Assembly: GCA_937934705.1 (NCBI GenBank)
Contig: CALGYY010000098.1
Location: 39,485 to 103,484, forward strand
DNA length: 64,000 nt
Reading direction: 5' to 3'
DNA from: an uncultured Bacteroidota bacterium
Lineage (GTDB): Bacteria > Bacteroidota > Bacteroidia > Bacteroidales > CAIWKO01
In this document: piece by piece, positions 20,783 to 56,963 of the stretch
How the letters are laid out: each line of letters opens with the position of its first letter
How positions within the stretch are numbered: position 1 is the first letter of the stretch
Made by a program: the position numbers and the translations under genes
The notes under the pieces: generated by a model
What the model was told of the DNA's origin: nothing
Database searches by the model: none
What the model saw: only the letters and a program-made list of their open reading frames with translations

Positions 20783-21112
20783 TTAGGCTATGTCAGTATT
20801 TGTAACCCTCCCCACCGCCTCCATCACCGCCTTCGTCATCTCCTCCCGGCTCTTCGGATCCAGCGTTTTGAACACCTTGTTGATCTCCTTCTGAATAGGA
20901 TCCTGCTTGTTCCCCGGGTCGAATTTGCGGTACATCAGGAACATCCCAACAATGGTGATGATGCTGGGCAGAAAGGGGGTGAGTTTTTGACGCAACAAAC
21001 TTGACAAAACTGGCCTTAAACATCTTAATAACAGCATCCCGATACACTGTGCCATCGGGACTCGTTCGAGCAGTAAATTTAGTTCACCTCGCTCTTGAAA
21101 TTTGAGTTTCAC
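20783..21112 (-). CDS. Hypothetical small protein (one hydrophobic segment); coding status uncertain
   Basis: 109-aa ORF with a plausible C-terminal half (..KFDPGNKQDPIQKEINKVFKTLDPKSREEMTKAVMEAVG..). No recognisable family; competing overlapping ORFs. Confidence 0.3.
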   Translation of the reverse strand: MKLKFQERGELNLLLERVPMAQCIGMLLLRCLRPVLSSLLRQKLTPFLPSIITIVGMFLMYRKFDPGNKQDPIQKEINKVFKTLDPKSREEMTKAVMEAVGRVTNTDIA

Positions 21113-54642: not shown

Positions 54643-55896
54643 TTATTTCCCTAAAGAAGCCAGCGAAATCACATTTATTCCGTCGGGCCGGCGATAACTC
54701 ATTCCTGTCCCGGTAATAATGTTTAGTGATTTCGGCAACTCCATTTTGGCTGTATCGATATTCTTTACAAACTTTTTAAGATTTTCAGCTGCTTCGTCGA
54801 TAAATCCAACCCCCAGTTTTATTTCAAAGGCCGCATAATCCCCATTGCGTCGCTGAATAATAGCGTCAACCTCCAAACCATAAGAATCATTATAGTGAAA
54901 CAGATTTGCATCATTTGCTCTGGCATATACGTTTAACTCATGCGTTGCCAATGACTCAAATAAAAACCCTGCATACTTTATATCTTTGATCAGCGACTCT
55001 TTATCTAATCCCAATACTGCTGCTGCCAGAGAGGTGTCACATAAATGTCGTTTGGGCGATTTCCGTAAGGATGCCGCTGAGCGAATATGCGGATTAAAAG
55101 CGGCTTGTTCATACAAAATCATTAAACGGGATAGCGCATCAAGATATTCTGTGATTGTATTTCGCGACAATTCATTTCTATCCGAAGTTTTCACATCATG
55201 CTCCAGTGTTTTATTGTCCACCAGTGTTGCCGTATTCCTGGCAACAGAACGTAATAAACTGCGCACTTTGATAGGATCACGTTTCACACCCGAGACTCTG
55301 CTCATATCCGCTTCACACAGCAAATCAACATAGCCCCTGTTCATCATGAGTGCGTTTTTTAAACTTTCATTCATTAAAGCGGGCCACCCGCCTGTCAACA
55401 TTTTTTCAATTATGAATTCAAGCGAAATTCCTTGTTCGTAGAAGTCCGGAAGGTTTCCTTCCAGTAAATCTGAAACCTTTACCATACCGGTCGAATAACC
55501 TAATTCCTGCCAGGTCATGGTGTCCATTTGCACAACAGTAAAACGTCCGGCTCCGCTATGCAGTTTAAGGTCGTCAGGCGGATTTGCCGAACCCGTCAGA
55601 ATAAACTGCCCTTTTTCTTTTCGGTCGTCCACTTCGTGTCTGATATAAGTCCAAATTTCCGGTTGTTCCTGCCATTCATCAATTAATCTCGGTGTTTCCC
55701 CTATCAACAAAAGTTGGGGATTTGTTGCCATGATAGCAGGAACCTGTTTGTCCCTATCCATTTCTAAAACACTTTTGGCAAATTGGTTTGCTGTTGCTGT
55801 TTTTCCGCACGCCTTCGGTCCTTTTATAAGTACTGCACCCGATGCTGCTAATTTCTCCAACAAATCTTTTTCAATTATTCTCTTTATGTAACTCAT
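54643..55896 (-). CDS. AAA-type ATPase with DUF4143-like C-terminal domain (COG1373-type)
   Basis: 417 aa: P-loop GPKACGKTATA, Walker-B-like LLLIGETPRLIDEWQ; C-terminal part typical of the AAA_14/DUF4143 family. Confidence 0.75.
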   Translation of the reverse strand: MSYIKRIIEKDLLEKLAASGAVLIKGPKACGKTATANQFAKSVLEMDRDKQVPAIMATNPQLLLIGETPRLIDEWQEQPEIWTYIRHEVDDRKEKGQFILTGSANPPDDLKLHSGAGRFTVVQMDTMTWQELGYSTGMVKVSDLLEGNLPDFYEQGISLEFIIEKMLTGGWPALMNESLKNALMMNRGYVDLLCEADMSRVSGVKRDPIKVRSLLRSVARNTATLVDNKTLEHDVKTSDRNELSRNTITEYLDALSRLMILYEQAAFNPHIRSAASLRKSPKRHLCDTSLAAAVLGLDKESLIKDIKYAGFLFESLATHELNVYARANDANLFHYNDSYGLEVDAIIQRRNGDYAAFEIKLGVGFIDEAAENLKKFVKNIDTAKMELPKSLNIITGTGMSYRRPDGINVISLASLGK

Positions 55897-55940
55897 ATTT
55901 AGGCGCTTAAATTCATTGCAAAGATATGAAAAAATCTTGC

Positions 55941-55984
55941 ATTGTGCAAATTTCAGACATTATATTGTGCAAATTTCAGACATT
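55941..55984. repeat. Tandem direct repeat 2 x 21 bp (ATTGTGCAAATTTCAGACATT) with 2-bp spacer
   Basis: Identical copies at 55941-55961 and 55964-55984, 45-88 nt upstream of the ATPase ATG (55896). Confidence 0.9.
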
Positions 55985-56260
55985 TTACTGTGCATTATTT
56001 AGAAATCCAGTACATTGTTGCCGATTGGGCAAACGAAGCGCAGTCTGAAAGCTTGACCCAGGCGTAAGTATTACGGTCAATAGATCATTTGACAACCGGA
56101 CCCCAGAAAAATCCGCCTGCCTGAAAAGCCAAGTCCGCCTTCTGATCCACCTGTTTTTTGAAAGGATTTGACCGGAGATGGACGGCCTGAAATTGAAAAG
56201 CCCGTTCAAACATTCGTTTGTGAAAGTTTCTGAACGGGCAGGGACAGTGTGAGTCTTGAG

Positions 56261-56682: not shown

Positions 56683-56836
56683 TTTATATCTCAAATAGCC
56701 CCCTGTTGACCCTCCCGACTGCAAGTCGGGATGCTTTGAACCAGCTGAGCTAAACTCCCTTTATATCTCAATTAGCCCCCTGTTGACCCTCCCGACTGCA
56801 AGTCGGGATGCTTTGAACCAGCTGGGCTGAATTCCC
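56683..56836 (-). repeat. Two tandem 77-bp truncated tRNA-like units (tRNA-Val(TAC) 5' half plus a foreign hairpin, no T arm or 3' acceptor strand)
   Basis: Units at 56683-56759 and 56760-56836: GGGAGTTTAGCTCAGCTGGTTCAAAGCA-TCCCGACTTGCAGTCGGGA-GGGTC-AACAGGGGGCTA(T/A)TTGAGATATAAA. The upstream unit has extra D-arm/acceptor substitutions. Confidence 0.85.
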
Positions 56837-56862: not shown

Positions 56863-56963
56863 CATCATTTAGTGTTTCGGACAAATTTTGAAAAAAAAAT
56901 GAGATTCAAAATACGTATTAAACAGAAAACCACTTACTTTGTATTTCAACAACCACTTGAACC

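Follow-up and report, generated by a model that had tools for sequence, protein, structure and literature searches.

The 64,000-nucleotide (nt) stretch of an uncultured Bacteroidota bacterium analyzed here (contig CALGYY010000098.1; hereafter, the window) carries on its minus strand, from position 56885 to 56261, one tRNA operon, at the head of which stand two tandem 77-nt units (56836-56683) made of the 5' half of a tRNA-Val gene joined to a foreign hairpin. The explanation that we favor, with a probability of about 0.55, is that these units are orphan, non-functional copies of tRNA-Val(UAC) which have been overwritten by the hairpin and which come from a family of GIY-YIG elements of Bacteroidota and Ignavibacteria. 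Comparison with other genomes revealed a three-way association between tRNA genes, this hairpin and small open reading frames (ORFs) with a GIY-YIG nuclease domain, the confinement of the hairpin to those contexts and selection on its stem. A functional hairpin-bearing leader RNA, or a DNA site read by a nuclease made elsewhere, is a serious rival.

Each unit consists of a 28-nt 5' half of tRNA-Val, a 19-nt hairpin (TCCCGAC-TTGCA-GTCGGGA, named HP hereafter) and a 30-nt filler formed by GGGTC and 25 further nt. Read on the minus strand, unit A (56836-56760) contains a diverged 5' half (56836-56809, GGGAATTCAGCCCAGCTGGTTCAAAGCA), HP (56808-56790, TCCCGACTTGCAGTCGGGA) and the filler (56789-56760, GGGTCAACAGGGGGCTAATTGAGATATAAA). 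Unit B (56759-56683) contains the 5' half of tRNA-Val(UAC) (56759-56732, GGGAGTTTAGCTCAGCTGGTTCAAAGCA), the same hairpin as unit A (56731-56713) and its own filler (56712-56683, GGGTCAACAGGGGGCTATTTGAGATATAAA). Neither of them has a T arm or a 3' acceptor strand. An earlier note on this DNA had described two tandem half-tRNA units of this kind, and both their coordinates and their sequence were confirmed. It was also correct in that the 5' halves have diverged, as unit B differs from the intact tRNA-Val(UAC) gene (56682-56606) at 1 of 28 positions and unit A at 4 of 28. However, the hairpin and its 3' flank, which had been given as identical in both copies, differ by a single base over these 49 nt. 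Similarly, the two 77-nt periods stand (a repeat search gave a tandem repeat with this period and 97% identity), but not their start at the 5' half: the repeated module is better taken to run from the hairpin through the filler to the 5' half, with the first and more diverged 5' half lying outside the repeat.

No tRNA was called in 56683-56836 by ARAGORN or by Rfam, with Rfam even at E <= 10, and no Rfam family matched the units at permissive thresholds. Because the T arm and the 3' acceptor strand are missing, the units cannot mature into tRNAs. In addition, the D stem of both units is broken by a change of G22 to A, which undoes the C13-G22 pair, and unit A has a second broken pair, C12.A23. 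HP folds into a stem of about 8 bp, in which the seven stem pairs are extended by a T-A pair from the loop ends and 3 nt are left as the loop, and not into the 5-bp stem and 7-nt loop of a tRNA. By single-sequence folding (z-scores of the fold, -2.2 and -1.4), structure beyond HP was no better than that of shuffled sequences. An AGCCC/GGGCT pairing with the filler, apparent in the fold, was discarded since it is not kept in other lineages. The units would be co-transcribed as the 5' leader of tRNA-Val. The intergenic region was recovered in one ENA assembly with 1 base difference in 1068, and two other contigs (NCBI and Logan), which end inside the repeats, match the window exactly over 334 and 170 bases; therefore, the units are not an assembly artefact.

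The same stem is found in a third place of the operon, on a different scaffold. The UCA unit (56518-56442, minus strand) is a full-length copy of tRNA-Val(CAC) with the hairpin TCCCGAC-TTCAA-GTCGGGA (56490-56472) as its anticodon arm. It forms a 7/5 class I cloverleaf with a 5-nt variable loop and scored 50.7 bits with the Rfam tRNA model, while the intact tRNA-Val(CAC) (56403-56328) and tRNA-Val(UAC) genes, both called by ARAGORN, scored 70.5 and 71.5 bits, respectively. Its defects are a C5.A68 mismatch in the acceptor stem and U73 where both intact Val genes have A73; its anticodon stem has 6-7 bp, as C32 and G38 can pair. ARAGORN labels this unit tRNA-SeC(UCA), which follows from the anticodon alone. 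A selenocysteine tRNA (tRNA-Sec) identity was rejected on the basis of the lack of an 8/5 (or 9/4) arrangement and of a long variable arm, together with the defective acceptor and discriminator. The labels given by ARAGORN to HP-bearing copies elsewhere, namely tRNA-Stop(UUA), Lys, Cys, Glu and Val, are likewise set by the loop. The UCA unit is most likely a pseudo-tRNA.

The pattern TCCCGACTTNNAGTCGGGA was found at three sites of the window, all of them in this operon, with 0.06 expected from 100 shuffles. At 21037-21060 another hairpin (TCCCGATACACTGTGCCATCGGGA) has the outer stem of HP with a 12-nt loop; it has no tRNA context, lies in a minus-strand ORF of 109 amino acids (aa) and is probably a chance match.

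The earlier note had proposed to search other genomes for the hairpin and for further half-tRNA units. A scan with TCCCGACTTNNAGTCGGGA of one genome per species (596 Gb), in which up to 8 kb were fetched for each locus, gave at least 163 HP occurrences in at least 119 loci, which are numbered here with the prefix L. About 100 of the 163 are at the anticodon-arm position, that is, between the 3' strand of the D stem (..AGAGCA) and the variable loop (GGGTC..). The listed loci with a tRNA context are all labeled as Bacteroidota (with Chitinophagaceae, Bacteroidales, Rikenellaceae, Flavobacteriales, Cytophagales and Sphingobacteriales among them), Ignavibacteria or Melioribacteraceae, except L105, which is in a bin labeled Comamonadaceae. 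Cultured isolates are among the carriers, namely Parapedobacter defluvii CGMCC 1.15342 (L024, with both the ORF described below and HP), Longitalea luteola SYSU D00799 (L066), Cyclobacterium roseum SYSU L10180 (L059), Paraflavitalea speifideaquila BL16E (L035), and Niastella vici DJ57 (L008). A rule based on the flanks scored 59 listed occurrences as non-tRNA. These were mostly from unrelated phyla or plain terminators, several of the Bacteroidota ones actually adjoin class II tRNAs, and their number is of the same order as the chance expectation of about 70 (17 fixed bases in 596 Gb, our own calculation).

Three classes of units could be distinguished: a 5' half plus HP without T arm, as in units A and B (at least 27 occurrences); HP plus a 3' half, with an ORF before it (at least 23); and full-length tRNA-like copies with HP, as in the UCA unit (at least 16). 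The commonest intact neighbor among the listed loci was tRNA-Val(UAC), with 27 of the 115 tRNAs called. Hairpins of the type TCCCGA..TCGGGA were also found as replacements of the D arm or the T loop in eight loci (L017, L058, L073, L078, L099, L105, L107, and L118), and in L049 HP replaces the 5' part of the native anticodon arm, the 3' part being kept. The head-of-operon layout, with a promoter, one to four units of 5' half, HP and filler, and tRNA-Val(UAC), was present in L027, L028, L034, L062, L064, L073, L086, L095, L106, and L125. Most of these ten loci have an ORF 3' of the tRNA, and the order promoter, repeats, tRNA, terminator hairpin and ORF was seen in L034, L062, L064, L073, L086, and L106.

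The distribution of HP was also analyzed in 230 kb of metagenome loci anchored on the ORF. A total of 75 HP-type hairpins were within 300 nt of a tRNA or ORF and two were elsewhere, both in T-arm-like contexts, so that the density of these hairpins near tRNAs and ORFs is about 80 times that of other positions. HP was not found in 2.9 million viral contigs, save one chance-like match. The possibility, contemplated in the earlier note, that the hairpin is a dispersed repeat of the repetitive extragenic palindrome (REP) or miniature inverted-repeat transposable element (MITE) type was rejected by these figures and by the three window copies being all in the operon. HP resembles such repeats in being a short GC-rich palindromic hairpin with many copies across genomes; unlike them, it is limited to places where a copied tRNA gene has an arm or a GIY-YIG ORF has its 3' end.

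With respect to conservation, 94 of 100 distinct stems from all loci are perfectly paired and the other six have one mismatch. The perfectly paired stems comprise six versions, five of which differ from the commonest one on both sides of a pair. These compensatory versions and the high proportion of paired stems indicate, therefore, that pairing is under selection. Variant hairpins include TTCCGAC/GTCGGAA, CTCCGAC/GTCGGAG, TTCCGAT/ATCGGAA, and TCCCGCT/AGCGGGA, as well as longer ones such as TCCCGACAC-GCAA-GTGTCGGGA; stems beginning with TCCCGAT and a TCCGCC type also occur. The loops of homologous units have 2-9 nt and any sequence and, as a consequence, HP is not a mimic of the anticodon loop. 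A memory of the anticodon in the loops was also considered, as TTACA in L024, L035, and L120 is like the native loop, and it was discarded because most loops are unlike it. G.U and A.C mismatches in the mismatched stems are 2 and 3, respectively, too few to call whether selection acts on RNA or DNA. The strict conservation of the stem along with the compensatory changes shows that the structure of HP is read by something.

These results bear out several ideas of the earlier note. It had seen the same stem in the UCA unit, on the Val(CAC) scaffold, and had argued that one hairpin at the anticodon-arm position of different tRNA backbones is hard to attribute to random decay; the hairpin occupies this position here and in more than 100 loci elsewhere, and its three window copies greatly exceed expectation. 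The selection on the hairpin that it had suggested agrees with the compensatory stem versions, which also answer the check for covariation across homologous loci that it had raised. Replacement of anticodon arms, by gene conversion or similar, was the right kind of idea given the recurrence at the arm position and the selection on the stem, conversion being the presumed route.

In 30 of the 119 listed HP loci, a GIY-YIG ORF was found within the 8 kb fetched, and HP begins 0-60 nt after it. The ORF lies between an intact tRNA and an HP-bearing partial copy and encodes a protein of 82-100 aa that consists of the GIY-YIG catalytic domain (E-values of 1e-14 to 1e-18 with Pfam PF01541) and no other domain. 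Of the catalytic residues, both Tyr, the Arg, and the His are invariant, and the Glu is nearly so. Searches of NCBIfam and PHROG gave no family and no match for these ORFs, and the nearest solved structures were those of the UPF0213 proteins 1zg2 (E of 5e-12) and 1ywl (BH0048, EF2693), followed by SLX1 (7cq2). In at least eight of 25 distinct ORFs, the frame crosses the remnant of the tRNA D arm and has its stop codon in the HP loop, giving a tail that ends in ..GSEHPD. Typically, a promoter and an intact tRNA are followed by a terminator hairpin, the ORF, a remnant of the D loop, HP, the T arm, and the acceptor strand; this layout can be repeated, up to nine 337-nt units of ORF plus partial tRNA in L020. 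The intact tRNA 5' of the ORF varies (Val, Met, Arg, Lys, Phe, Pro, Thr, Asn, Leu, or Ser), and its identity is in every case shared by the partial copy on the downstream side. Among the loci inspected, HP has no other recurrent neighbor gene.

The association was also examined in the reverse direction with 80 metagenome loci retrieved by the ORF alone and not chosen for HP. A same-strand tRNA was present within 200 nt upstream of the ORF in 47 of the 80, with HP upstream in 9 more, and a TCCCGA..TCGGGA hairpin within 200 nt downstream in 33 of the 80 (about 40% of the ORFs); many other loci examined carry variant hairpins at the downstream position. The layout with the 5' half was found with the ORF still present in L055 and L187 (tRNA-Asp) and in L152 (tRNA-Tyr), where the order is 5' half, HP or other hairpins and the start of the T stem, then the ORF, and then the intact tRNA. 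A sister lineage of the ORF is directly upstream of an intact tRNA-Ser in the metagenome loci L151, L155, L186, L192, L193, and L202. In them the ORF is preceded, and often also followed, by 5' stumps of tRNA-Ser joined to two other GC-rich hairpins, for example GCGCC-CAAG-GCGC plus CCCGCC-TCGG-GCGGG. Therefore, the principle of stump, stable hairpin and ORF is wider than the TCCCGA hairpin. In one metagenome-assembled genome (MAG), an HP unit without ORF (L046) is present together with an element that bears the ORF (L091).

The family of GIY-YIG elements has two layouts. In one of them an intact tRNA is followed by a terminator, the ORF, and then HP with the 3' half; in the other, the 5' half with HP precedes the ORF and then comes the intact tRNA. 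In the reading that we favor, the window would be the second layout minus the ORF, with the 5' half, HP, and about 25 nt left over, and with its module of HP, filler, and 5' half duplicated once. The UCA tRNA would be the same HP overwrite on a copy of tRNA-Val(CAC). As to the mechanism, the nuclease would break the DNA of the tRNA gene at or near the anticodon arm, and repair from an HP-bearing template, by gene conversion with co-conversion of the flanks, would overwrite the arm. In this way HP could spread to more tRNA copies, among them paralogues with the flanks GGTTCAGAGC(A/G) and (A/G)GGTC in common. HP might last either since it could not be cut again or since it would be recognized by the nuclease, and unequal recombination between duplicated halves would build the arrays and could delete the ORF.

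Some features of the units are in agreement with this proposal. Homology to the tRNA breaks at different points of the T stem and loop in different lineages, and such variable breakpoints fit a second layout from which the ORF has been deleted. The more diverged 5' half of unit A, outside the repeat, is what would be expected if it were the stump of the original gene. The window filler, read as AAC AGG GGG CTA ATT GAG ATA TAA, gives N-R-G-L-I-E-I-stop, which fits the C-terminal consensus of the ORFs (N-R-x-R-I-E-x-L-I) and ranks 25th of the 127,960 seven-residue windows of the six-frame translation. When a matrix built from 64 ORF tails was applied against genomic nulls, the Fisher combination of 12 independent fillers yielded p = 0.004.

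Several observations weigh against this reading. No GIY-YIG ORF or recognizable remnant was found in the 64-kb window by tblastn, regular expressions or six-frame hmmsearch (best E = 1.7) and, because the window has no ORF, its link to a nuclease is by homology of architecture. The case for the filler as a possible ORF relic is moderate, as most single fillers are not significant; an earlier test with a crude weight matrix and shuffles was not significant, and comparison of the filler with ORF tails at the DNA level gave no meaningful match. The intact tRNA beside the ORF has its native anticodon arm, so that a nuclease aimed at this arm must spare its neighbor or cut it rarely. Likewise, the ORFs have no DNA-binding domain and belong to the SLX1/UPF0213 clade and not to the classical homing endonucleases. 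A symmetric nested insertion, with equal numbers of upstream stumps and downstream ORF units, was rejected by the counts, as the commonest state is 0 upstream and 1 downstream. Finally, in two Bacteroidales MAGs of different species (L062 and L106), which have four and two copies of the unit, respectively, the two 5' units shared are identical at 150 of 150 positions, while the 540 nt upstream are 88.9% identical; and in L027 and L028 the 5' half and the HP stem are kept although the flanks are unalignable and no ORF is present within 8 kb. This identity and this survival suggest selection or recent exchange rather than a decaying scar.

The last two cases are among the arguments for considering the units as a functional RNA, namely a hairpin-bearing 5' leader freed by RNase P from the tRNA-Val precursor and acting through HP. 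HP could then be the ligand, antidote or decoy of a GIY-YIG protein made elsewhere, as in a type III toxin-antitoxin system, or else could stabilize or regulate the operon transcript. This proposal, which in both forms we regard as possible though on balance unlikely, also finds support in the location of the units beside a strong tRNA-type promoter in at least ten lineages, in the six loci with the order promoter, repeats, tRNA, terminator hairpin, and ORF, in the compensatory changes of the stem, and in the MAG which has units both with and without the ORF. The order in L062, L064, and L106 of promoter, short tandem repeats, terminator, and small nuclease ORF recalls that of ToxIN-like systems; however, a GIY-YIG protein takes the place of ToxN/AbiEii, a functional tRNA is placed between repeats and terminator, most ORF loci have no upstream units, and the window has no ORF. 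Furthermore, only HP is conserved as a structure, with the modest z-scores and the broken D stem described above, filler and loop sequences diverge freely between lineages, and the mismatched stems present no bias of G.U over A.C. To our knowledge, all characterized GIY-YIG enzymes act on DNA, which is also contrary to a role at the RNA level. A related and doubtful proposal is that HP and the UPF0213/SLX1-like nuclease constitute a hitherto unrecognized two-part system for the tRNA genes of the Fibrobacteres-Chlorobi-Bacteroidetes (FCB) group bacteria. The nuclease would recognize the hairpin or cruciform of the anticodon arm, HP would be an uncleavable or inhibitory ligand, and the promoter-proximal arrays, the two window units among them, would be kept by selection, as DNA or as abundant leader RNA, to give immunity in trans against nuclease copies elsewhere, and would not be dead scars.

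It is improbable that HP is an autonomous miniature palindrome, or the footprint of another enzyme, that enters or replaces the hairpin parts of tRNA genes and merely shares this niche with the GIY-YIG ORFs. The replaced D arms and T loops, the partial replacement in L049, the many HP units without an ORF within 8 kb and the use of other GC-rich hairpins by the tRNA-Ser lineage would all be explained by it. Nevertheless, only two of the 77 hairpins counted in 230 kb were away from tRNAs and ORFs, the window has just the three copies of the operon, about 40% of the ORFs have HP close downstream and at least eight of 25 take their stop codon from its loop, no other gene is recurrent beside HP in the inspected loci, and non-tRNA matches are mostly from unrelated phyla and about as many as expected by chance. 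Even less credit can be given to the HP units as tRNA mimics, with the UCA unit acting as an opal suppressor or Sec tRNA and the half units as decoys for anticodon nucleases, a function that the earlier note had suggested for the hairpin. The UCA unit does keep a near-complete cloverleaf, and the window loops can be drawn with 7 nt, U33 and A37. But the homologous loops, of variable length and any sequence, argue against both the decoy and a true UCA suppressor or Sec tRNA, C32-G38 pairing gives a 7-bp stem with a 5-nt loop, the UCA unit lacks A73, a sound acceptor stem and both Sec-type features, and the half units, without acceptor stem or T arm, could be neither matured nor charged. As regards ordinary decay of tandem tRNA duplicates sharing a hairpin by coincidence, tandem tRNA-Val genes are indeed common in related genomes (L141, L168), but this explanation is effectively refuted by an identical 19-nt module on two scaffolds where 0.06 sites were expected, by the presence of the module in over 100 loci of other genomes and by a non-uniform divergence which leaves the 5' half nearly intact and the 3' third unrecognizable.

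Among known systems, the closest parallel is SegB of bacteriophages T4 and T6, which is reportedly a free-standing GIY-YIG homing endonuclease encoded in a tRNA gene cluster. The phage enzyme cleaves within tRNA genes and brings about tandem amplification of tRNA plus segB, through recombination of the tRNA's 5' region with segB's 3' end (PMC13096335). As in that case, a GIY-YIG nuclease gene lies among tRNA genes, and the tandem units of tRNA plus nuclease gene match the nine 337-nt units of L020 and the tRNA-fused ends of the ORFs. By contrast, the ORFs reported here are chromosomal, from Bacteroidota and Ignavibacteria, without PHROG match, and they have the catalytic domain only, belong to the UPF0213/SLX1 clade and lack a C-terminal DNA-binding module; the conserved hairpin that overwrites tRNA arms has no counterpart in SegB loci, and these ORFs are known from their sequence alone. 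Adjacency to tRNA and tandem duplication of tRNA and ORF, both of them SegB-like features, are seen in the related loci only, the ORF being absent from the window. Indirect hints of homing by these ORFs may be seen in the identity tract of L062 and L106, whose end at the anticodon arm of the intact tRNA-Val hints at a break there, and in the assembly breaks mentioned below.

The ORFs share with the UPF0213 proteins (BH0048, EF2693, and YhbQ of E. coli) and SLX1 a common C-terminal region, E..K.W/LK.R..(L/I)E.LI. SLX1 cleaves branched DNA such as stem-loops, in keeping with an element that has a hairpin or cruciform as its hallmark. In prokaryotes, Slx1-like domains are fused to, or share operons with, COG4123 and a TrmH-like methyltransferase (PMC1564403), which is the sole indication in print of a link to tRNA. 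Unlike what is described here, no association of this family with tRNA genes or hairpins has been reported, and the bacterial family is essentially uncharacterized. COG4123 corresponds to TrmN6, the m6A37 methylase of tRNA1-Val(UAC), and the dominance of tRNA-Val(UAC) at HP loci is a striking coincidence with this target. The partial tRNA copies next to an intact gene also recall the duplications left at attachment (att) sites by integrative elements. However, those are native 3' parts flanking an integrase island, while the copies of the window are tandem 5' halves with a foreign hairpin, and an origin as att-site duplication was discarded on these grounds and by the lack of an integrase among the genes called or scanned from 50932 to about 64000.

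Other observations on these loci were made in the course of the comparison. Contigs of independent assemblies often start or end in repeats of tRNA, HP, and ORF (L122, L123, and many of L124-L203), suggesting that such loci regularly break the assembly of Bacteroidota metagenomes. In the alignment of L062 and L106, the downstream ORF looks considerably more diverged. Between the near-identical strains of L124 and L125, the flanks are about 99-100% identical and around a dozen differences are concentrated in two parts of the element, the GIY-YIG ORF of 258 nt and HP's 3' arm (GTCAGGA against GTTGGGA), which suggests a locally raised mutation or relaxed selection on the element. A Saprospiraceae MAG (L043, 2440-2560) has one HP copy inside an array of otherwise unrelated-looking short hairpins (TCTGAC-GAA-GTCAGA, then HP, TCGAG-TGAAA-CGAGA, and TCGCC-GAAG-GCGAT), with an ATCATT motif between them.

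The remaining features of the window operon, all on the minus strand, can be summarized as follows. A putative promoter of the Bacteroidota type, read directly from the sequence, spans 56885-56855, with TTTG at 56885-56882, a 19-nt spacer and TATATTTG at 56862-56855, in agreement with the consensus of Bacteroides promoters. A generic sigma-70 scan also marks 56884-56857, which overlaps it, and a TAnnTTTG box is present 12-20 nt 5' of the first unit or tRNA in L020, L028, L062, L064, L086, and L117 as well. Directly after the promoter, folding of the 250-nt leader predicted a 19-nt hairpin with an 8-bp stem (56851-56833, TCCCGTTT-CAA-AAACGGGA) that extends over four bases at the start of unit A. 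It has the outer five pairs of its stem (TCCCG/CGGGA) in common with HP, and it may be either a diverged fourth HP or an ordinary pairing between leader and acceptor strand. The units are followed by the intact, functional tRNA-Val(UAC) gene and, between this and the UCA unit, by an imperfect inverted repeat detected in the repeat search (56602-56523), with 33-nt arms that are 82% complementary. This 80-nt repeat holds internal 12-nt direct repeats (CAGTCAGCAGTG) and could be a spacer, a terminator, a processing hairpin or the remnant of something deleted; its matches to microRNA models of Rfam at permissive thresholds are sub-threshold and were rejected as spurious. After the tRNA-Val(CAC) gene the operon ends with a terminator-like inverted repeat (56325-56261) with 18-nt arms that are 94% complementary, inside which a terminator-like site was located at 56292-56273. 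It is built of short repeats of the GAGAGT type (CTCTCACTCTCACTCTCACTC) and, because A and T runs flank it at either side, it could stop transcription that comes from either direction.

The genes around the operon encode a DUF4143 ATPase, a protein with type IX secretion system (T9SS) and PKD features, TsaB, efflux components, a dUTPase and a polysaccharide-synthesis protein. The next-best match of TsaB is only 57% identical, and no orthologous locus of a close relative was available for comparison. At 55937-55985, immediately before the minus-strand gene of the DUF4143/AAA_14 ATPase (54643-55896), a sequence of about 23 nt (ATTGTGCAAATTTCAGACATT) is present as two direct repeats, which may be an operator or else a promoter duplication.

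In the literature searched, which left most subscription journals outside its coverage, no description was found of GIY-YIG/UPF0213 genes nested at bacterial tRNA genes or of tRNA gene copies substituted by a hairpin, and this family of nuclease genes at HP-marked tRNA genes is apparently undescribed. If the reading favored here is true, the tRNA genes of a major bacterial phylum would be the habitual target of a small selfish nuclease gene, whose recognizable signature would be a single conserved hairpin written over anticodon arms and, at times, over D or T arms. This would explain the spurious tRNA-SeC, tRNA-Stop and odd-anticodon calls in annotations of Bacteroidota, the contig breaks caused by repeats, and the tandem pseudo-tRNA arrays which head tRNA operons. 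It would also open a way to learn what the still uncharacterized SLX1/UPF0213 proteins of bacteria do, a family conserved from E. coli to Bacillus; if the two-part system were the true one, it would give the bacterial SLX1 homologues their first biological role and would tie in with their fusions to tRNA methyltransferases. Finally, the finding made with SegB, that tRNA gene dosage can be reshaped through segmental amplification by a GIY-YIG endonuclease, would be extended from bacteriophages to bacterial chromosomes.

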